Source: Gemmatimonadales bacterium (GTDB lineage Bacteria; Gemmatimonadota; Gemmatimonadetes; Gemmatimonadales; GWC2-71-9). From it: DNA of 64,000 nucleotides. Positions 1-16,263 of the stretch are shown one piece after another. The notes under the pieces were generated by a model. The model searched no databases and was not told the origin of the DNA. It worked only from the letters and a program-made list of their open reading frames with translations. The translations under genes were made by a program, and so were the position numbers. How positions within the stretch are numbered: position 1 is the first letter of the stretch; each line of letters opens with the position of its first letter. The stretch lies in contig JBBSCB010000008.1 of NCBI GenBank assembly GCA_038250675.1, forward strand, positions 34,740 to 98,739. The letters are read 5' to 3'.

Positions 1-866
1 TAATTCTCCTCGAGCCGAACCAGCGTCGTGCCGGGAAAGTCCCGCTGGAAATCACGCATGTTGCGCACGTCGGCACCGCGCCAGCCGTAGATCGACTGAT
101 CGTCGTCACCCACCGCGCACACGTTGCCGTGCGCGCCAAGCAGCCGGATCAGCTCATACTGCGCCTTGTTGGTGTCCTGGAACTCGTCGACCAGCACGAA
201 CCGGAACCGCTCCTCCTGGTAGTACCTCAGCCGGTCGGGATGCTCACGGAACAGCGTCAGCGGGTGCAGGAGGAGGTCGTCGAAATCCATCGCGTTGGCC
301 GCCTTGAGCGCGGGTCCCATGGCGCCGTACACGTCGGCGGCCACCTGCACCATGCGGTCGAAGGGCGAGCTGGCCGACAGCGACGCCGGTGACGCCATCC
401 GGTTCTTGGCTCCGGAAATGATGGACTGCACCACCCGCGGCGTGAACGTCTTGGTGGAGTGCTCGCGCTGCTCCATCAGTCGGCGGATGAGCCCCAGCCG
501 GTCGTCCTCGTCGTAGATGGTGAAGTTCGAGCTGAAGCCGAGGAAGCCCGCTTCGCGCCGGAGCAGCCGGGCCGACAGCGAGTGAAAGGTGCCGATCCAG
601 AGCCCCGACGGATCCCGCTGCAGCAGCTGGCCGATCCGCTGCTTCATCTCGCCGGCGGCCTTGTTGGTGAACGTTACCGCGAAGATCCGCTCGGGCGGCA
701 CGTCATGGTGCTCGATGAGGTTGGCGATACGGGTCGTGAGCACGCGCGTCTTGCCGGAGCCGGCGCCGGCGAGCACGAGCAGCGAGCCGTGCACGTGCTC
801 CACGGCCTCGCGCTGTGCGGGATTCAGCGAGCGGGTCCAGTCGCGCTCAACGGGGCTATCGATCAT
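1..866 (-). CDS. uvrD: ATP-dependent DNA helicase, UvrD/PcrA/Rep (SF1) family; N-terminal part, gene runs off the left edge
   Basis: Absent from the ORF track because it has no stop in the window. My translation of the reverse strand from ATG 866..864 gives [51 protein letters not shown]...[11 protein letters not shown]...[11 protein letters not shown]...[14 protein letters not shown]. These are SF1 helicase motifs Q, I, Ia, II and III. The ATG overlaps the stop of the upstream kinase gene (ATGA). Confidence 0.9.
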
Positions 867-2044
867 GGGCTCCGGTCCGCCAGTGGCATGCGAAGAAGAA
901 AAGTGGTGCCGCGGCCAAGCTCCGGCGCCTCGAGCGTGAGCTCGCCGTGGTGCGTGTCCTCGACCACCCGCCGTGCGAGCGCGAGGCCGATGCCCCAGCC
1001 GCCCCGCTTGGTGCTGATGCCGGCCTCGAAGAGCGTGCGCCGGATCTCCTTGGCGACGCCGGGCCCGTCGTCGGTGATCCGCACCTCGCCCATGCCGGCG
1101 GCAGCGCTGACCCGGAGCGCGATCACACCGGTGCGCCCCTGCATGGCGTCGATGGCGTTCTTGACCAGCGCCTCGAGCGCCCACTCGAGCAGCACCGGGT
1201 CGCCGACGACGGTCGGCCCCGCACCGGGCGCGTCCACGCGGAGCTCCACCGGATTGGCATGGCGCGGCAGGCGCGGCCGGAAATAGCCGGCCACCCGGTC
1301 GGCCAGCGCACCGAGGCCGATCGGCTCGCGCCGCGCCGGGTTGCCGATCCGCTCGAACCGCTGGGCCACGCGCTCGAGCCGGTCGGCGTCGGCGCTCAGG
1401 TGCTCCGCGAGATTGGCCGGCGGCGTCGGGCGGGAACGCACGCTCTCGATCCAGCCCTGCAGACTGGTGAGGGGCGTGCCCATCTGGTGGGCCGCCTCCC
1501 GCGCCATCGCCACCCAGAGCCGGTCGCGCTGCGCCGCCATGGCGTTGCGGTAGGCAAAGAACGCGACGGCCACCATGACGAAGATGGTGAGCGCCTGCAG
1601 GATGGCGAGCAACGTGAGCTGCCGCTGCGCCGGCATCGGTCCGTAGTGCACCGTGGTGCCCAGCAGCGTGTCGCGAATCGGCGGGTTGGTGCGATCAAGA
1701 TGCGCGGTGTAGTCGATCAGTTCGGGCGCATCGCGCGGGGCCGCCTGCAGCTCCGGCGGAAGGTTGGCGGCCTCGGTCACGCGGCCCGCCGCATCGGTCA
1801 CGACGAGGGGCAGCCCGAGGGCGCGGACCTGCTCGCCAAGTTGCACGAGCGCGGTGCCTTCCCCGCCCGACTCCGAGCTGCTCAGCCCGCCGAACACGCC
1901 GCTGTAGAGCCGGCTCGTCGCGCGGGCATCGGCCTGGAAATGCCGCGCGACCACCATGCTCGTCCCCATGCTGATCGCCGCGAGCAGCGCGACCAGGACC
2001 ACCGCGACGGTCGGCGCGAGGCGGCGGACGCGGTCCCTAGCCAC
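863..2044 (-). CDS. Sensor histidine kinase (two TM helices, periplasmic loop, HisKA + HATPase_c); no response regulator adjacent
   Basis: ORF 863..2593 trimmed to GTG 2044. The upstream part is Arg/Ser-rich and overlaps serS in another frame. TM helices [24 protein letters not shown] and [24 protein letters not shown]-box [16 protein letters not shown]-box LVKNAIDA, G1 ITDDGPG, G2 [10 protein letters not shown]. Confidence 0.8.
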
Positions 2045-3320
2045 GCGCGGCCAGCCGGTCGGTCCCGAGGTACGGGGCCAGAGCCTCCGGGACCCGAACC
2101 GACCCGTCGGCCGCTTGATTGTTTTCGAGGAGCGCGATGATCGTGCGGGGAAACGCGAGCCCCGAGGCGTTGAGCGTGTGCACGAACACCGGCCGTGCAC
2201 CGGGCTCAGGTCGGAACCGGATGTTGGCGCGCCGCGCCTGGAAATCGGTGAACGTGCTCGAGCTGGAGACCTCGAGCCAGCCACCCACCCCCGGCGCCCA
2301 CGCCTCGAGATCGAAGGTCCGCGCCGCACTGAAGCCGGTGTCGCCGGCCGCGAGCTCCAGCACGCGATACGGAATCGCCAACCGCTGCAGGACCGTCTCG
2401 GCGTGGCCGGTGATCTTCGCGTGCTCGGCCGGCGAGAACTCGGGCCGGGTAATCCGCACCAGCTCGACCTTGTCGAACTGATGCACCCGGATGAGTCCCC
2501 GCGTGTCCTTGCCGTGCGCACCCGCCTCCCGGCGGAAACAGGGCGTGTACGCGACGAAGGTCGCCGGCAGCGCCGCTGCCTCCAGCACCTCATCGCGATA
2601 GATGTTCGTGAGCGGCACCTCGGCGGTCGGGATCAGGAAGAGATCGTCCGCCGGCGAGGCGTAGGCGTCGTCCTCGAACTTGGGAAGCTGGCCGGTGCCG
2701 GTGAGCGTGGCACGGTTGACGAGATACGGCGGGACGATCTCCGTGTAGCCGTGCTCCTGCGTGTGCAGGTCGAGCATGAAGTTGGCAAGCGCGCGCACCA
2801 GCCGCGCGCCGGCCCCGGTGAACAGCGGAAACCCCGACCCCGCGATCTTGGCGCCGCGTGGCAGGTCGAAGAGACCGAGATCGGCGCCGATCTCCCAGTG
2901 GGGCCGGGCCGTGAAGCTGAACGACGGGATCTCGCCCCAGGTGCGGATGACACGGTTGGAGGCGGCGTCGCCGTCCGGCAGCTCGGGCAGTGGGAAGTTC
3001 GGCAGTCGCATCAGGACCGCGTCGAGCGCGGCGTCGAGCTCCCGCACGTCGGCGTCGAGTGCCTTGGCCGTGTCGCCCGAGGCACGGAGCGTGGCCAGCA
3101 GTTCATCCGCGGGCTCACCGCTCCGCTTGCGCCGCGCCACTTCCTCGGTCGCGGCGTTCCGCTCCGCCTTGATCTGCTCGGCGCGCGTGACGGTCTCGCG
3201 GCGGCGGCGGTCGAGCTCGAGCGCCTCGTCCAGCGCGGGGAGCAGCGCGGGATCAAGCCGGCGCGCGAGCGCGGCACGCGCCGCCTCGGGGTCCTGGCGC
3301 AGGCGCTTGATGTCGATCAC
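2037..3320 (-). CDS. serS: Seryl-tRNA synthetase
   Basis: 427 aa. N-terminal coiled-coil arm MIDIKRLRQDPE.... Class II motifs FRREAGAHGKDTRGLIRVHQFDKVE and HTLNASGLAFPRTIIALLE. Confidence 0.95.
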   Translation of the reverse strand: MIDIKRLRQDPEAARAALARRLDPALLPALDEALELDRRRRETVTRAEQIKAERNAATEEVARRKRSGEPADELLATLRASGDTAKALDADVRELDAALDAVLMRLPNFPLPELPDGDAASNRVIRTWGEIPSFSFTARPHWEIGADLGLFDLPRGAKIAGSGFPLFTGAGARLVRALANFMLDLHTQEHGYTEIVPPYLVNRATLTGTGQLPKFEDDAYASPADDLFLIPTAEVPLTNIYRDEVLEAAALPATFVAYTPCFRREAGAHGKDTRGLIRVHQFDKVELVRITRPEFSPAEHAKITGHAETVLQRLAIPYRVLELAAGDTGFSAARTFDLEAWAPGVGGWLEVSSSSTFTDFQARRANIRFRPEPGARPVFVHTLNASGLAFPRTIIALLENNQAADGSVRVPEALAPYLGTDRLAARG

Positions 3321-8063: not shown

Positions 8064-10039
<1,976 letters not shown>

Positions 10040-10088
10040 TGCCACCTCCACAACAAGTAAGATTGGTAAATAATTGCGCCACATTCAC

Positions 10089-10115
10089 TTGGCACTCAGG
10101 TCATTGGAGTGCCAG
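10089..10115 (-). promoter_or_regulatory. CIRCE operator (HrcA binding site) of groESL
   Basis: TTGGCACTC-N9-GAGTGCCAG against consensus TTAGCACTC-N9-GAGTGCTAA. The arms GGCACTC/GAGTGCC are perfect. It lies just downstream of the putative -10 and 50 nt upstream of the groES ATG. Confidence 0.75.
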
Positions 10116-10155: not shown

Positions 10156-10311
10156 GCGCTCGCGGCAGAGCTCACGGACGACCGGTGCGGCTCTGACCCC
10201 GGTCGGCCGTGCTTGACTTTGCCCGGACGCCGGCCGAGTTTCCCGCCGGGCCGAGGCTGGCCCCACGCGCCGCGCGCGGCCGCGTGTCCACCCGTCACAC
10301 CGGAGTTCGGC

Positions 10312-11433
10312 ATGCTGCTGTTCGGTTCCCTGCTCGCGCTGTCGCTCGCCACTCCCGGCCCCCGGCCGCTGCCCGCCGCTCTTCCGGGGCCAGACCCGCG
10401 GGTCACCGTCACGGTGGACTCCTCCCGGCACGCCGTCGTCATCATGTCCGGACCGTTCGACCTGAAGAACGAACCGCCCATGGATGAGATGATGGAGATG
10501 GGCCACGCCATGGAGCACGACGCCCCGGTGCAGCGGTTTGCCTGGCCGGTGGACGGCTGGCTGCGCGGGTTCGAATGGAGTCTCGTGGATGCGCACGGGC
10601 GCCCGGTGCCCAAGCAGGTCATGCACCATCTCATTATGGTGAACTTCGACCGCCGCCAGCTGCTGTACGATGCGGCCGAGCGCCTCATGGGCGCCGGCAG
10701 TGAAACGGAAGACGCAACGGTGCCCAAGTCGATCGGCATTCCGCTCACCACCGGCACGCGGCTGGGCTTCTACATCATGTGGCACAATGACACGGGTCAC
10801 GACCTCGACGGGGTGACACTCAAGCTCAGCCTGCTGTGGACGCCAAAGAACCAGAATCCGCGGCCGGTGAACGCACTCCCCATCTACATGGACGTCAATC
10901 TGACCGTGGGCGGGACCAACACCTTCGATGTGCCCCCCGGGAAGTCGACCAAGTCGCACGAGTTCACGATGCCAGTGGGCGGCAAGCTGCTCGGCGTCGG
11001 CGGACATCTGCATGACTACGGGACGTCGGTGAGTTTGGTGGATGCCGAAACGGGCAAGGTGCTCACCCGCGTCGACGCGGTGCGGGATTCGACCGGTCAC
11101 GTCCTGAGCGTCGGCCGCCACCTCTTCGGTGTGAGCGGCTCGGGCCTCACGCTCAAGGCCAATCACCGATATCGCGTCGTGGGTGAATACAGCAACACGA
11201 CCGGCAGGATGCGCCCCGACGGCGCGATGGCGCACATGGTGGGGCTGTTCGTGCCGGACGACCTCAGCCGCTGGCCCGCGATCAATCCATCGGACCCGGG
11301 GTTCAAGCTCGACATGGCATCACTTCACGCCGACCCGCGGGGGAATCCGCTTCCGATGGACGGGATGCCGATGGACCACGACATGCCCGGGACGAACCAT
11401 TCGGGCGGCGCCAAGTCCACCGGCAAGCCCTAG
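10312..11433 (+). CDS. Secreted protein with PHM/DBH-like (copper type II monooxygenase-like) His/Met ligand pattern and Met/His-rich tracts
   Basis: ORF 10213..11433 trimmed to ATG 10312 (GGAG 7 nt upstream). Signal peptide MLLFGSLLALSLA. In the 373-aa product: H105-H106 (VMHHLIMV), H158 (IMWHND), H232-x-H234 (GGHLHDYG), M307/M309 (AMAHMVGLF). Met/His tracts MDEMMEMGHAMEH and PMDGMPMDHDMPGTNH. See findings. Confidence 0.55.
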   Translation: MLLFGSLLALSLATPGPRPLPAALPGPDPRVTVTVDSSRHAVVIMSGPFDLKNEPPMDEMMEMGHAMEHDAPVQRFAWPVDGWLRGFEWSLVDAHGRPVPKQVMHHLIMVNFDRRQLLYDAAERLMGAGSETEDATVPKSIGIPLTTGTRLGFYIMWHNDTGHDLDGVTLKLSLLWTPKNQNPRPVNALPIYMDVNLTVGGTNTFDVPPGKSTKSHEFTMPVGGKLLGVGGHLHDYGTSVSLVDAETGKVLTRVDAVRDSTGHVLSVGRHLFGVSGSGLTLKANHRYRVVGEYSNTTGRMRPDGAMAHMVGLFVPDDLSRWPAINPSDPGFKLDMASLHADPRGNPLPMDGMPMDHDMPGTNHSGGAKSTGKP

Positions 11434-11459: not shown

Positions 11460-12425
11460 CTACTCCACGATCCGCCTCACGCCGACCCAGCGCTTGTACC
11501 ACCACTTCCCGTACGGATCGTTCTCGGTCAACTGACTGGTCTGGACCCCGGTGCTCGCGCTGTGGATGAACCGCCCGTCGCCGATGTACATCCCGACGTG
11601 CGTCACCCCGTGACCACTGTTCGAGAACGTCAGCAGGTCGCCGGGCTGCAGCGACGCCACGTCGCGGCCCACCTCGCGTCCCGCCGCCGCCTGCTCCATG
11701 CTGCGCCTGGGCAGCCGGATGCCGTGACGGGCGTAGGCGTACTGGATCAGGCCCGAGCAGTCGAACCCGCCGCCGTCCACGCCGCCCAGGCGGTAGCGGG
11801 TGCCGATCACGGAGTCCGCGGTCGCGATGACGCCATCGAGCAGCCGCTGCGCATCGCTCCGCGCGAGACTGTGCCCGGTGGCGGCGGCGTCTCCGAACGG
11901 CGCGGGCGGCGGCGCCGCATCCGGGCGCGTCCGCGGCGCACGTGACCCGCCGCCAAAGTTGGCGCCCAGTCGCAGCGAGAGCTCGAGACCGGATCGCTGA
12001 TGCGCGCCGTACTGGTGATATCGCGTCTCGATCCCCAGCGAAAGTGCAGGGAGCGGCAACAGCTCGTAGCCGAGCCCGGCGGACCACGCGCTCCACCAGC
12101 TCTCGGCGCCGTCGGTGCCGATGCCGCCGCTGAGTGCACCCATCGCGTAAATGCCCGGGCGACCGCCCCGGAACAGCGACACCTCGGCGGTCCCGCCCCA
12201 CAGGCGTGCCGATGCCGGCGCGGGCCCCTGCACCAGCACGCCGCCAAGCCCGAAGCCGGCGGGGCCGGCGATCGGCCCCTGCCAGGTGGCGCCATAGGAC
12301 GTCCAACCACCGTCGCGGAACAGATGACCGAGGCGGAGCGCCAGCCCCTGGGCGTGCATGGGGGCCGGGAGCGTCGCCGCGCAGCCGGCGAGTGCCAGGA
12401 TCAGGCGCCGCGCGGGCCCGCTCAC
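11460..12425 (-). CDS. NlpC/P60 family peptidoglycan endopeptidase lipoprotein with an N-terminal Gly/aromatic beta-rich domain
   Basis: 321 aa. GTG start overlaps the upstream stop (GTGA). Lipobox LALAGC. The N-terminal ~150 aa is rich in alternating G/aromatic strands (ELSLRLGANFGG). Pro-rich linker. C-terminal NlpC/P60 domain with catalytic Cys in GGFDCSGLIQYAY and His in GVTHVGMYIGDGRFIHS. Confidence 0.8.
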   Translation of the reverse strand: MSGPARRLILALAGCAATLPAPMHAQGLALRLGHLFRDGGWTSYGATWQGPIAGPAGFGLGGVLVQGPAPASARLWGGTAEVSLFRGGRPGIYAMGALSGGIGTDGAESWWSAWSAGLGYELLPLPALSLGIETRYHQYGAHQRSGLELSLRLGANFGGGSRAPRTRPDAAPPPAPFGDAAATGHSLARSDAQRLLDGVIATADSVIGTRYRLGGVDGGGFDCSGLIQYAYARHGIRLPRRSMEQAAAGREVGRDVASLQPGDLLTFSNSGHGVTHVGMYIGDGRFIHSASTGVQTSQLTENDPYGKWWYKRWVGVRRIVE

Positions 12426-12823
12426 CGGGCGCGCACCGGCACCGGCTGCCCGGTCCTGACGTCAACGTGATAGCGATCGAGCGGGACACAGCCGCGGTAC
12501 AGCACCGCGCCGAGCGTCGAGTCGTCGATGAAGCGCGGAGCGACTTCGGTGTACAGCAGCGGCACCGGGATGCGCGCGACACCGCGCCGGATCTCCAGCG
12601 TGCGATCGACGCACCGTCCTCCGGCAGAATCGTGATCCTCGCGTGCCAGCGTGAACCAGACCGTCGTGCTGTCCGGACCCCGTGCCACGAGTGATTCGGG
12701 AAGCGCCGCGGGTTGGGCAATCGAGTCGACCGACGTGGTGGCGGCGGCTCGCTCGGCCCGGCCGGTGCACGCGGCGGCCAGCCCCATGAGCGCCAGCGCG
12801 GCCCCCGGGAGCGGCCGCGTCAC
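12422..12823 (-). CDS. Hypothetical lipoprotein
   Basis: ORF 12422..12997 trimmed to GTG 12823, which overlaps the upstream stop (GTGA). VTRPLPGAALALMGLAAAC is a signal peptide plus lipobox. ATG 12787 is an alternative start. No motif recognised. Confidence 0.5.
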   Translation of the reverse strand: MTRPLPGAALALMGLAAACTGRAERAAATTSVDSIAQPAALPESLVARGPDSTTVWFTLAREDHDSAGGRCVDRTLEIRRGVARIPVPLLYTEVAPRFIDDSTLGAVLYRGCVPLDRYHVDVRTGQPVPVRAR

Positions 12824-13146
12824 CGCGCCGCTCCCGCCGCGTCTTCGTCCTCCGGATCGAGCGTGGTGGGCGCGGTCAGCGATGCCGTGTCCGGGGTGCC
12901 ATCGGCGGTGATCGCCAGTGCCTCCCGAATGGCGGGCGAGCTCCGGAGCAGATGCAGCCAGCCGATGAGCGTGAGGAAGCCGGCGGCGGCGCCGCACAGG
13001 GCGGCCACGACGAGCCCGGTCTGCGGGTTGGCAATGCGCGCAGCCAGGACTTCACCCGCGACGCAGCCAAAAAAAGAAGCTGCCCACGCCATGAACGGCG
13101 TGAGCAGCCATCCGAACGCCCGCAAGAAGAGCCGCAGCCAATGCAT
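12820..13146 (-). CDS. Hypothetical small membrane protein (3 predicted TM helices, acidic tail)
   Basis: ORF 12820..13254 trimmed to ATG 13146. MHWLRLFLRAFGWLLTPFMAWAASFFGCVAGEVLAARIANPQTGLVVAALCGAAAGFLTLIGWLHLL..., with tail DPEDEDAAGAAR. Confidence 0.5.
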   Translation of the reverse strand: MHWLRLFLRAFGWLLTPFMAWAASFFGCVAGEVLAARIANPQTGLVVAALCGAAAGFLTLIGWLHLLRSSPAIREALAITADGTPDTASLTAPTTLDPEDEDAAGAAR

Positions 13147-13150
13147 CAGG

Positions 13151-13780
13151 TCACGCGCGGGATGCCCGCCACGACGTGAGCGCGGCCCCGGCGGCGACCC
13201 CGGGCAGAAACGCGACGCCGAAGGTGCCGAGCGACCAGCCCGCATGCGGCACATGGATCACGATCGCGAGGAGGGCAAATCCCACGCTCAGTGCGAGCGC
13301 GAGCAGCATGGGCTGCGCCAGCGAATGCGGCTGTCCGCGCCGCACCCGCGCCGCCAGCATGAGCGCGCCCATCCACGGCATGAACGTCCCGACCATCCAC
13401 CACACCGGGTGGTACCACCAGTTGCTGCCCCCGCCGATCTCGAGCCAGCGGTTGGTATAGACACCGAGGGGCTGCAGGATCGCGACATCAAACAACAGAA
13501 ACACCGCCGTGGCGGCGAGTCCGGTGCCGGCGGCACCGGCGATCCCCTCGATGGTTCGCGCCCGGGTCCAGGTGCCCGGCAGCAGCGTGACGATCGTAAG
13601 CCCCGCAATCAGCACGATCCCGCCGACGACCGCCTCGACGATGCCGCCGGTCAGCCGGGTGATGATGGCCATCAGCACCACGATCAGCGCCTCGATGGCG
13701 CCGAGGATCACGGCATGCCGGATCACACCGGGCAGCGCCGTCCGATCGAAATCGCCCTGAAGTTCCACCGCCGATCCCAT
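13151..13780 (-). CDS. Hypothetical polytopic membrane protein (Trp-rich)
   Basis: ORF 13151..13792 trimmed to ATG 13780 (GGGAG 5-6 nt upstream). About 6 hydrophobic segments. Striking segment NWWYHPVWWMVGTFMPWMG. No family recognised. Confidence 0.55.
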   Translation of the reverse strand: MGSAVELQGDFDRTALPGVIRHAVILGAIEALIVVLMAIITRLTGGIVEAVVGGIVLIAGLTIVTLLPGTWTRARTIEGIAGAAGTGLAATAVFLLFDVAILQPLGVYTNRWLEIGGGSNWWYHPVWWMVGTFMPWMGALMLAARVRRGQPHSLAQPMLLALALSVGFALLAIVIHVPHAGWSLGTFGVAFLPGVAAGAALTSWRASRA

Positions 13781-13807
13781 GCCGTCTCCCACTGGAGTGA
13801 AGGGTCA

Positions 13808-13837
13808 ATAATACCGCGGCCCGGCGCGCCGGGCCAA
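13808..13837 (-). promoter_or_regulatory. Putative promoter of the 13780->11460 envelope cluster
   Basis: Minus strand: TTGGCC (13837..13832), 18 nt, TATTAT (13813..13808), 27 nt upstream of ATG 13780. It overlaps the palindrome listed below. Confidence 0.4.
13818..13835 (-). terminator. Perfect 18-nt GC palindrome downstream of the UbiA-family gene (terminator-like)
   Basis: GGCCCGGCGCGCCGGGCC, 8 nt after the stop at 13843. Followed on the minus strand by GCGGTATTATTG. Confidence 0.35.
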
Positions 13838-13842
13838 GGGGT

Positions 13843-14766
13843 TCAGCCGGCCCAGGCAGCGACCACGACGATATCGGTCACCGCCCACGCAGCGAGCGCC
13901 CGATACATCCCTCGCTGGTGCTCGGCCGGCGTCATGCGCACGCCGCGGCGCCGCCACGGGACGAGCACGGCGGCCCAGGCCGCTCCCGCCGCCCCGAGCG
14001 CCGCCCAGCGCCAGCCGCCGGCCGTACCCCAGCCACTGCGCACGCCGGCCGCCGCGAGAAGCGCGAATGCCAACGCCGCCGCGCCCAGCGCAACGTCGAG
14101 ACTGCGCGCGACGCCGAGGCGCAGCGCGAGCGTCACGTCGCCGCGGGCGCGGTCCTCGTCGAGCTGATAGAGCTGCGTAAGCGGATACAGCGCCGCGAAC
14201 AGCGGGCAGAAGGCGAGCAGAATCAGCCCGTGCGTGAGGTGGAGCGGACGCCCGGTCGACGCCCACCCGGCGTACGGCGTCAGCGACCCGAAACCCCACA
14301 TGTTGATGAGCCAGTCCGCACCCGCCACCGCCTTCAGACGAGCCGGCGGCACCGAATAGAGCAGCGAGAGCAGGAGGCACACGACATACGCGGCAGCGAA
14401 GCCGCGCGGCAGCGCGAACGCGCCGGCGAGGCCGGCCAGCATCAATCCGAGCCCGAACGCAAAGAGATGTCGCGGCGGCGGCGGCGGCCGGCGCAGGTAG
14501 GCGACGTCTCCCAGGTCACGATCGACAGCGGAATTGATCGCCAGCGTTCCGCCGTTGAGGCACACCACCCAGAGCAGCAACGCCAGCAGACCGTGCCCCA
14601 GCTCGGCACCGGCCGCCAGCGCCAGCCCCGTCGCGAGCAGGTAGCCCACCGTGGTATGGGCCGCCATGATCGGCCATTCCGCGGGGCGCAGGTGCAGCAC
14701 GTAGTCAAAGCGGCCGCCGAGCAGACGGTAACCCAGCCGGCGCGTGCCGCCGGGCGATGGCGTCAC
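13843..14766 (-). CDS. UbiA-family prenyltransferase (substrate unknown)
   Basis: ORF 13843..14985 trimmed to GTG 14766, which overlaps the coaX stop (GTGA). About 8-9 TM helices. Asp-rich motif NSAVDRDLGD and second motif YQLDEDRARG. Confidence 0.7.
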   Translation of the reverse strand: MTPSPGGTRRLGYRLLGGRFDYVLHLRPAEWPIMAAHTTVGYLLATGLALAAGAELGHGLLALLLWVVCLNGGTLAINSAVDRDLGDVAYLRRPPPPPRHLFAFGLGLMLAGLAGAFALPRGFAAAYVVCLLLSLLYSVPPARLKAVAGADWLINMWGFGSLTPYAGWASTGRPLHLTHGLILLAFCPLFAALYPLTQLYQLDEDRARGDVTLALRLGVARSLDVALGAAALAFALLAAAGVRSGWGTAGGWRWAALGAAGAAWAAVLVPWRRRGVRMTPAEHQRGMYRALAAWAVTDIVVVAAWAG

Positions 14767-15542
14767 CAGCGGAGGCCCAGGTGTCCCGCTGCGAGGCACA
14801 GGCCGCGAAGCGTCAGCGCCGGCTCGACCGCGTCGATGCTCCGGCAGTGAGGCGCGACGAGCGCGGAGAGCCCGCCGGTCGCCACCACGCGCGGCTGACC
14901 GCCGTCCGGCCACTCGGCCCGGATGCGCCGCACCATGCCGTCCACGGCATCGGCGGCGCCATAGATCACGCCCGCCTGAATGCATTCCTCGGTCCGGCGG
15001 CCGATGACCCGCTCAGGCGCGGCGAGCTCAGTGGCGGGCAGCTTGGCGGCGCGCCGGGTGAGCTGATCGGCCGAGGTGCGCACCCCGGGCATGATGGCGC
15101 CACCGATGAAGCGACCATCGGCGGTGATGCAGTCGAAGGTGGTGGCGGTGCCGAAGTCCACCACGATCACGTCGCCAGCGTGCAGGTCCGCGGCCGCGAG
15201 CACGTTGACGATGCGGTCGGCACCGACGCTGAGCGGCTCGTCCACATCCAGCCGCACCGGCAGCCGCGCGTGCGCATCCACGGCCACCGGACGCACGCCG
15301 GTGGCCGCCGCGACGCCGTCGGCGATGCTGCGCGTGACCGCCGGCGCCACCGAGGCCAGGCAGATTGCGCGCACCTCGTTGGGCGAATGGCCGGCATGCA
15401 GCAGAAAACCGCTGATGGCGGCGGCCCATTCGTCCGGCGTACGATCGGGATTGGTCGTGAGTCGCCAGTGCACCAGGAGGGCGTCGTCCCGGAAGAGCCC
15501 GGCGGTGATCTCCGTGTTGCCGATGTCGAGGGTCAGAAGCAT
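14763..15542 (-). CDS. coaX: Type III pantothenate kinase
   Basis: ORF trimmed to ATG 15542. MLLTLDIGNTEITAGLF...VVDFGTATTFD...VVATGG are ASKHA-fold CoaX motifs. Confidence 0.9.
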   Translation of the reverse strand: MLLTLDIGNTEITAGLFRDDALLVHWRLTTNPDRTPDEWAAAISGFLLHAGHSPNEVRAICLASVAPAVTRSIADGVAAATGVRPVAVDAHARLPVRLDVDEPLSVGADRIVNVLAAADLHAGDVIVVDFGTATTFDCITADGRFIGGAIMPGVRTSADQLTRRAAKLPATELAAPERVIGRRTEECIQAGVIYGAADAVDGMVRRIRAEWPDGGQPRVVATGGLSALVAPHCRSIDAVEPALTLRGLCLAAGHLGLRW

Positions 15543-15555
15543 GGCCGGCTCTCCT

Positions 15556-16263
15556 TCAGGTGGTCCCGGCGACGGCCGGGCCCACGCGAACGGTCTCGAC
15601 GGCACCGTCGGCCCGGCGCACGCGCAGCGCTCCGTCGTCGAGCACCCCTTCGGCGATGCCCGCCACCGGCGAGTGGAGGACGCGGCCGCGGAGCCAGTCG
15701 CGCGCGGCAAACGCCCGCTGCTCGCGGCGATCGAGCAGCCCACCTTCCCGTGCCGCGGCACGGACCGCGTTGATCACGGGCAGCGCCAGATCGCCCGGGC
15801 GGAGCTCCGGCTGCACCGATGCGAGCGAGACGGCCGTACCCTCCAGCTCGGTGGGGATGGCGTTGGCCACATTGAGGCCGACGCCGATGGCGATCCACGC
15901 CAGCCGGTCTCCCACCCACCGTGCCTCGCACAAAATGCCGCCGGCCTTCCGACCCGCGAGCAGCAGATCGTTGGGCCACTTCACCGCCACACCGGGCACG
16001 CCGAACGCATCGAGCACCTCGGCCACCGCGAGGGCGACGCGCAGGCTCAGCGCATCGCCCGGCGGCGCACCGGCGGGGCGCACGAGCACGCTCAGCCACA
16101 GTCCGCCGCGGAGCGAGTGCCAGCTCCGCCCGCGGGACCCCCGCCCGCCGGTCTGCTCGACGGCCACCACCGCCGTGCCGTCCGCCGCGCCGTCCGCGGC
16201 CACGCCGTGCACCACGTCCTGCGTGGATCCGACGCGCTCGGCCCAGGTGATCAGCCCCGTCAT
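15556..16263 (-). CDS. birA: Biotin--[acetyl-CoA-carboxylase] ligase (no N-terminal HTH)
   Basis: 235 aa. EQTGGRGSRGRSWHS (GRGRxGRxW loop) and KWPNDLL. Confidence 0.85.
   Translation of the reverse strand: MTGLITWAERVGSTQDVVHGVAADGAADGTAVVAVEQTGGRGSRGRSWHSLRGGLWLSVLVRPAGAPPGDALSLRVALAVAEVLDAFGVPGVAVKWPNDLLLAGRKAGGILCEARWVGDRLAWIAIGVGLNVANAIPTELEGTAVSLASVQPELRPGDLALPVINAVRAAAREGGLLDRREQRAFAARDWLRGRVLHSPVAGIAEGVLDDGALRVRRADGAVETVRVGPAVAGTT

Follow-up and report, generated by a model that had tools for sequence, protein, structure and literature searches.

We analyzed a 64,000-nucleotide stretch of contig JBBSCB010000008.1 from a Gemmatimonadales bacterium (hereafter the window), in which the open reading frame at 10312-11433 on the forward strand encodes a protein of 373 amino acids followed by a stop codon. 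The protein, the subject of this report, is predicted to adopt the two-domain fold of peptidylglycine alpha-hydroxylating monooxygenase (PHM) and dopamine beta-hydroxylase (DBH), and a hidden Markov model (HMM) of its family detected a single copy in the window (E=3e-144). A longer frame beginning at a TTG at 10213 was rejected, as the homologues start at the methionine equivalent to the ATG, and a GGAG precedes that ATG (Table 1). Given that the window has approximately 70% G+C, overlapping open reading frames in other frames were regarded as shadows. On one side of the gene are groES (9725-10084) and groEL (8064-9695), both on the minus strand and divergent from it, while on the other side a minus-strand NlpC/P60 gene (11460-12425) is convergent with it. 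The gene is therefore monocistronic, and this, like its divergence from groESL, bears out what had been proposed in an earlier, sequence-only reading of this DNA.

Structure prediction relied on two sets of relatives, a close clade of 39 sequences and 84 diverse relatives with 28-65% identity to the query. The AlphaFold model from the close alignment had a predicted local distance difference test score (pLDDT) of 76.1 and a predicted template modeling score (pTM) of 0.74, and that from the diverse alignment had a pLDDT of 87.2 and a pTM of 0.82, with core residues 30-340 mostly above 93. Both models consisted of two beta-sandwich domains. In Foldseek searches of the PDB, ranks 1-27 and 1-29 for the two models were all PHM chains (best E of 1.3e-10 and 1.9e-10, ranging up to 2e-7, probability 1.00), in alignments of 305-357 columns that covered both domains, and human DBH (4zel) was placed next (E of 5e-7 and 8e-6). 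The checks put forward by the sequence-only reading included a prediction of this kind followed by a fold search against PHM, and a Pfam search; the first thus came out in its favor, with PHM chains filling the top 27 and 29 ranks.

Known structural neighbors of PHM, that is PNGase F, DUF2961/GH172, and viral double jelly-roll capsids (PMC8812541), ranked after DBH and only at E>=4e-5. We consider it highly improbable that the protein is a metal-free double jelly-roll protein with a glycan-binding or hydrolytic role like that of PNGase F or DUF2961/GH172, and that its PHM-like His/Met pattern is coincidental. PNGase F, PNGF-II, DUF2961, and GH172 do appear in the Foldseek lists at E of 1e-4 to 1e-3, PHM and PNGase F belong to a common Pfam clan, CL0612 (PMC8812541), and in one relative the domain is joined to a GT2 glycosyltransferase within a polysaccharide gene cluster. 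However, the PHM matches that hold ranks 1-27 and 1-29 are better by about a million-fold in E; the PNGase structures 7zgn, 4r4z, and 3ks7 scored 2e-4 to 2e-3 as against 1e-10 for PHM, and other double jelly-roll proteins were 10^5 to 10^7 times weaker in E-value. Moreover, the five residues that match PHM ligands are the most conserved His and Met of the family and are aligned on those ligands.

The PHM ligands are H107, H108, and H172 for the CuH site and H242, H244, and M314 for the CuM site; the numbering and identities were checked against PDB 1sdw_A, and the ligand set is confirmed in the literature (PMC12164859). In PHM the two sites are separated by about 11 A and open onto a solvent cleft. 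The sequence-only reading had correctly located H105-H106 (in VMHHLIMV), H158 (in IMWHND), and H232-x-H234 (in GGHLHDYG) as candidate counterparts. Its M307, the first methionine of AMAHMVGLF, is M306 (the other being M309), and the ligand spacing that it had called exact is similar rather than exact, at 52/74/72 residues versus 64/70/70 in PHM. Its assignment of the PHM ligand set as a whole stood for five residues, conserved family-wide, and did not stand for M309, which we rejected as an alternative CuM ligand (conserved in 14/84), nor fully for H158, which is found in only part of the family.

Conservation among the diverse relatives singled out these five residues. Specifically, H105 and H106 were each present in 82/84, H232 in 84/84, H234 in 83/84, and M306 in 83/84, making them the only near-invariant members of the 12 core histidines (four) and 10 core methionines (one); the best of the other core His or Met residues was M156, at 53/84 (63%). 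Both putative copper sites were kept together in at least 80 of the 84. Other near-invariant residues were R115, R124, E131, T132, Y287, R288, Y293, and N295.

Profile-profile comparison by hhalign of the family with a 50-sequence metazoan PHM profile gave a score of 25-27 (P=0.017-0.018) over 161-172 columns, aligning residues 121-304/321 to PHM 90-263/280 and pairing H232/H234 with H242/H244 and M306 with M314. A greedy extension paired H105/H106 with H107/H108, in a low-confidence part of the alignment. The flanks VPKSIGIPL/LPKGVGFRV and VPPGKS/IPPGEK were aligned as well, reproducing the by-eye alignments of the sequence-only reading, including its VPPGK/IPPGE motif. The observed score was above that of the reversed PHM profile (16.3, 6 columns) and above those of all 20 of 20 block-shuffled profiles (12.1-22.1). 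The comparison was not significant with the close-clade profile, or when a single PHM sequence was compared with either of the family profiles (E of 0.16 and 0.072). At the level of profiles, this signal is weak yet real and is in accord with the match in fold.

Both Met/His-rich tracts that had been pointed out from the sequence, MDEMMEMGHAMEH (residues 57-69) and PMDGMPMDHDMPGTNH (residues 348-363), are present, and Met or His were counted at 7 of 16 residues for the first and 7 of 26 for the second. They are located in a flexible loop and a disordered tail, respectively. Across the 84 relatives, Met and His together make up 20% of loop 52-72, 12% of the C-terminal tail, and 6% of the core; the tails often end in HHH, and it is the composition that recurs and not the sequence of the tracts. 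Many relatives have a classical Sec signal peptide or a lipobox (L-x-x-C) at the position of the query's hydrophobic N-terminus, which supports export of the query to the periplasm, by homology, and its signal peptide would then be cleaved. Export is also favored by the layout of the fusion protein P0486, in which a signal peptide precedes this domain and a transmembrane PAP2 comes after it. Cysteine is absent from the query and accounts for 0.09% of core residues family-wide, as compared with 10 in the PHM catalytic core, so that the earlier statement that a eukaryotic-style disulfide set is lacking was right.

The tracts bear on the main rival explanation, which is that the protein binds, buffers, or traffics copper in the periplasm without turnover, its scaffold and tracts sequestering or delivering Cu(I)/Cu(II). 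We regard this as unlikely, and as likelier than the other alternatives. The family-wide enrichment of Met and His in the disordered loop and tail, and the many tails ending in HHH, speak for such a role, and one relative is directly 3' of a TonB-dependent receptor, another is about 4.6 kb from a gene with an HMA domain, and the neighborhoods examined contained neither a partner reductase nor a substrate-related operon. However, the strongest selection is on the structured HH, HxH, and M set, while in the tracts both sequence and length vary freely; the near-invariant residues of the core listed above resemble a substrate pocket more than they do a storage site; and no cop, cus, or pco genes were adjacent in 8 distinct neighborhoods (12 loci), the gene itself being located among housekeeping genes.

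On balance, with confidence slightly above even, we favor the reading that this is an exported (periplasmic) two-domain protein with the PHM/DBH double beta-sandwich fold, which by analogy would bind two coppers and most likely act as a noncoupled binuclear copper monooxygenase or oxidase. It is probably a member of a large, unstudied bacterial branch of the PHM/DBH enzyme type. The periplasmic copper-dependent hydroxylase or oxidase suggested by the sequence-only reading is in this respect supported by the predicted fold, the conservation of the ligands, and the signal peptides of relatives.

Multiple observations weigh against this reading. No Pfam match to Cu2_monooxygen or Cu2_monoox_C (PF01082, PF03712) was found even at E<=10, whether for the query, the 39 close relatives, or the 84 diverse ones, so that the Pfam check put forward by the sequence-only reading was negative. 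With the query, searches of NCBIfam and phmmer searches of the PDB gave no match, profiles of the 39 close or 84 diverse relatives did not find PHM in the PDB, and a metazoan PHM profile run against the family (hmmsearch, filters off) scored at most 1.2 bits. By the usual sequence criteria, then, the protein is outside the PHM Pfam families. The hhalign match reaches a P of only 0.018, and superposition on PHM is moderate, with template modeling (TM) scores of 0.34-0.54 and root-mean-square deviations of 6-11 A, which may be attributable to domains oriented differently and to additional loops. The N-terminus of the query is without a basic n-region and is thus atypical for a signal peptide, and no operon partner was shared among the neighborhoods. 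Furthermore, with the ligands in register, G230, H308, and V310 occupy the positions at which PHM has its substrate residues R240, N316, and Y318, from which it follows that a PHM-style peptidylglycine site is not present; the absence of the PHM residues also speaks for the copper-handling alternative.

The remaining points on this side concern the third ligand of the CuH-like site. In the wider family H158 is present in 45/84 and replaced in 39/84, and an ungapped alignment sets it on V171, one residue short of H172, leaving the register ambiguous. Strand alternation favors the equivalence of H158 to H172, with one residue lost from the turn before the strand, because the core-facing F153/I155/W157 and outward Y154/M156/H158 match PHM F167/L169/V171 and V168/Q170/H172, respectively. 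M156 is located two residues before H158 on the same strand face; one or the other is present in 69/84 relatives and neither in 15/84, and a histidine within loop 52-72 is present in 51/84. From these counts, the CuH-like site seems to accept differing third ligands.

This variation also fits a PHM fold that serves another metal or chemistry, be it of an oxidase or peroxidase type, pure electron transfer, or a single copper with a structural HH pair. That alternative is doubtful, a shade more so in our estimate than copper handling. In its support, beyond the third ligand (H158 in 45/84, neither M156 nor H158 in 15/84), the substrate residues differ from those of PHM, and ascorbate, the reductant of PHM and DBH, is not known as a bacterial metabolite. 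Against it, both sites are kept together in at least 80/84, and Cu(I)/O2 chemistry is characterized by a His2Met site in PHM, in DBH and, convergently, in BURP cyclases (PMC12164859). For the His2Met site of PHM, a Cu(I)-CO stretch near 2090 cm-1 is reported (PMC12164859).

Were the protein a PHM/DBH-like enzyme, domain 1 would hold an electron-transfer, CuH-like copper on H105 and H106, joined in this clade by H158 as the third ligand, a role that M156 may take in relatives, and domain 2 would hold an O2-activating, CuM-like copper on H232, H234, and M306. By analogy to PHM, an external one-electron donor would bring both coppers to the Cu(I) state. In a bacterium this donor would not be ascorbate but, more likely, a cytochrome of the periplasm or a small reductant. 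O2 would then bind CuM, and the copper-oxygen species would abstract a hydrogen atom from a C-H bond of a substrate in the interdomain cleft, after which the substrate would be hydroxylated or oxidized. The flexible Met/His loop (55-70) and tail (339-373) may capture periplasmic copper and pass it to both sites. Because the PHM substrate-binding residues are absent, the substrate is presumably not a glycine-extended peptide bound in the manner of PHM.

The family is large. More than 1,400 relatives were found at E<=1e-3 in a protein collection clustered at 90%, all of them unnamed or 'hypothetical' and none with a Pfam domain, and an exhaustive HMMER search gave at least 702 clusters at 50% identity. 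All named members belong to Gemmatimonadota, specifically to Gemmatimonadales, Longimicrobiales, and Palauibacterales. A second profile search returned only close relatives, with no Pfam-annotated bridge to other families, and no homologue was found among 72,556 plasmid records. Evolutionary surveys of PAM mention PHM-like sequences in a few prokaryotes; in the literature we found no paper that describes a bacterial PHM-like family. The family is an example of what Pfam and NCBIfam miss and structure prediction recovers.

The sole recurrent Pfam signal came from SURNod19 (PF07712), over residues 212-253 (nt 10945-11070), a segment that includes GGHLHDYG. The query match, at 12 bits (E=0.091), was below the gathering cut-off of 25 bits, and further sub-threshold matches were found in 6/39 and 4/84 relatives (best E of 0.0095). 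SURNod19/MtN19 proteins are from plants, and kinship with them is no more than a lead. In bean, the Nod19 transcript is targeted by miR398, the copper-sparing microRNA (PMC3882225), which would fit Nod19 being a copper protein, and plant Nod19 proteins may be distant copper-binding relatives.

Table 1. Features of the PHM-like gene and its product (window coordinates), followed by loci of family members (coordinates of the respective locus).
Feature	Location (nt)	Residues	Strand	Basis or remarks
Shine-Dalgarno-like GGAG	10302..10305		+	6 nt 5' of the ATG; read from the sequence
Complete coding sequence of the predicted PHM-fold protein	10312..11433		+	373 codons and stop, from translation; identical public protein P0001
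Hydrophobic N-terminus MLLFGSLLALSLA and Pro-rich linker; presumed signal peptide without basic n-region	10312..10398	1-29	+	pLDDT 37-65 in both models
N-terminal beta-sandwich, putative equivalent of PHM domain 1 (CuH)	10399..10857	30-182	+	DSSP strands 30-178, pLDDT mostly >93; Foldseek
Met/His-rich flexible loop PPMDEMMEMGHAMEHD	10474..10521	55-70	+	7/16 Met or His; pLDDT 52-58
H105-H106, putative equivalent of PHM H107-H108 (CuH ligands)	10624..10629	105-106	+	strand 104-115; greedy hhalign
H158, proposed counterpart of PHM H172 and candidate for the third CuH ligand	10783..10785	158	+	invariant in the 39-sequence clade
C-terminal beta-sandwich, putative equivalent of PHM domain 2 (CuM, catalytic)	10867..11331	186-340	+	DSSP strands 189-315 and helix 329-337, pLDDT >90
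H232-L233-H234 in GGHLHDYG, putative equivalent of PHM H242-x-H244 (CuM ligands)	11005..11013	232-234	+	hhalign
M306, putative equivalent of PHM M314 (CuM thioether ligand)	11227..11229	306	+	hhalign
Disordered Met/His-rich C-terminal tail including PMDGMPMDHDMPGTNH	11326..11430	339-373	+	pLDDT 28-58
Window and L002 (Gemmatimonadales)				syntenic: groESL, PHM-like gene, NlpC/P60, three small open reading frames, UbiA, PanK, BirA; the genes are on other strands and in other operons
P0124	L003 3342-4466			on the same strand as a TonB-dependent receptor (Plug and barrel, 1263-3269) and 72 nt downstream of it, after a DUF6526 gene
P0150	L007 7160-8833			signal peptide, PHM-like domain, transmembrane PAP2
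P0246, 720 aa	L006 8001-10163			PHM-like domain, presumably periplasmic, is the C-terminus of a membrane GT2 glycosyltransferase
P0121, 677 aa	L005 25-2058			two tandem PHM-like copies, matched as two stretches in the HMMER search; family HMM 787 bits in total, 408 for the best domain
Several other relatives				stand alone or adjoin peptidases (M14, M16, M24)

Fusions to other domains were found in relatives, but are rare (Table 1). The PAP2 fusion was present in four members, one of them in NCBI (P0486, 567 aa, HLZ44979.1) and named there just 'phosphatase PAP2 family protein'. This fusion, described from P0150 and P0486, is recurrent in Gemmatimonadales, retains intact PAP2 motifs (PSGH and RxxxxxHxxxD), and has N at the H158 position with M156 kept. 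The polysaccharide cluster around the GT2 fusion P0246 contains GT4, methyltransferases, an epimerase, and a sulfatase-family protein. The PAP2 and GT2 fusions hint, not strongly, at a cell-envelope lipid or glycan as substrate.

Peptidase genes (M14, M24, two M16, and NlpC/P60) adjoin family members in neighborhoods that are unrelated to one another, at L038 8336-11371, at L039 4897-6357 and 8744-11808, and at 11460-12425 of the window. They may be a coincidence in the peptidase-rich Gemmatimonadota or a hint, likewise not a strong one, of a peptide substrate. P0124 and the TonB-dependent receptor form a possible operon, the sole such case among the loci examined. The idea of a conserved partner encoded by 133-aa open reading frames beside two family members was rejected, the two being unrelated to each other.

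At the locus itself, the minus-strand block downstream of the gene (11460-15761) is kept across Gemmatimonadales, with its counterpart at L002 9146-13956, and comprises NlpC/P60, three small open reading frames, a UbiA prenyltransferase, a type III pantothenate kinase, and BirA. The three small open reading frames (133, 108, and 209 aa) were without a Pfam match, and the 209-aa product is a multi-pass membrane protein. L002 has, as an insertion, a DUF1207 gene that separates groES from the PHM-like gene. In the window, a CIRCE-like inverted repeat was observed at 10089-10115, in the intergenic region just upstream of the minus-strand groES and about 200 nt away from where the PHM-like gene begins. 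The repeat, TTGGCACTC-N9-GAGTGCCAG, agrees at 15/18 positions with the HrcA operator consensus, TTAGCACTC-N9-GAGTGCTAA.

Among characterized proteins, PHM itself (the rat PAM catalytic core; 1PHM, 1SDW, 3MLJ, 6ALA) is the best structural match over both beta-sandwich domains, and resembles the bacterial protein in having an adjacent histidine pair on one strand, an HxH motif on a domain 2 strand, and a methionine about 70 residues further on. The two differ in that no HMMER or Pfam similarity is detectable, identity in structural alignments is about 11%, PHM has five disulfides formed by its 10 cysteines whereas the bacterial protein has none, R240/N316/Y318 are not conserved, and the third CuH histidine is variable in the bacterial family. 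The bacterial protein additionally has the Met/His loop and tail, is predicted to be periplasmic, and would operate with no PAL partner and no ascorbate. It combines the predicted PHM fold and copper-ligand pattern with the lack of PHM disulfides and substrate residues. DBH, tyramine beta-monooxygenase, and MOXD1 (4ZEL) constitute the second-best structural family, with a two-copper core as in PHM; DBH has an N-terminal DOMON domain, a C-terminal dimerization domain, and disulfides, none of which is present in the bacterial protein.

Likenesses to other systems are more limited. The short MxM, MxxM, and His clusters in flexible exported segments recall the Met motifs of CopC/PcoC, PcoA/CueO, CusF, and Ctr1; here, they are appendages on a PHM-like fold, and there is no sequence homology to those proteins. 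PNGase F/PNGF-II, DUF2961/GH172, and viral capsids have the double jelly-roll architecture in common (PMC8812541) and are weak Foldseek matches to the bacterial protein, yet are without the His/Met copper ligand set. The AhyBURP peptide cyclases have two copper sites lying opposite one another across a cleft, conserved Met flanks, and a proposed PHM-like radical mechanism (PMC12164859). However, BURP cyclases are found in plants and have an unrelated fold, Cys-His motifs, and disulfide staples, and the likeness is convergent only.

To our knowledge, noncoupled binuclear copper monooxygenases that are well studied are limited to PHM, DBH, and tyramine beta-monooxygenase, and these are treated as eukaryotic; PHM is described as widespread in eukaryotes (PMC8812541). 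In a bolder form, which we put forward tentatively and hold at somewhat less than even confidence, the protein would found a large family of noncoupled two-copper monooxygenases in prokaryotes. These would be cysteine-free and ascorbate-independent, have built-in Met/His copper-capture arms, act in the periplasm on an envelope lipid, glycan, or peptide, and escape sequence-profile databases, forming an ancient bacterial counterpart of the neuropeptide-amidating and noradrenaline-making enzymes. If true, copper-enzyme chemists would gain a much simpler system in a large bacterial family that is free of disulfides and open to periplasmic expression, and with it a route to the passage of electrons from one copper to the other and to the reason for which the Met ligand is essential. 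It would also mean that noncoupled two-copper chemistry exists without ascorbate, and would point to oxidative modification of the envelope in Gemmatimonadota, an abundant but poorly studied soil phylum.

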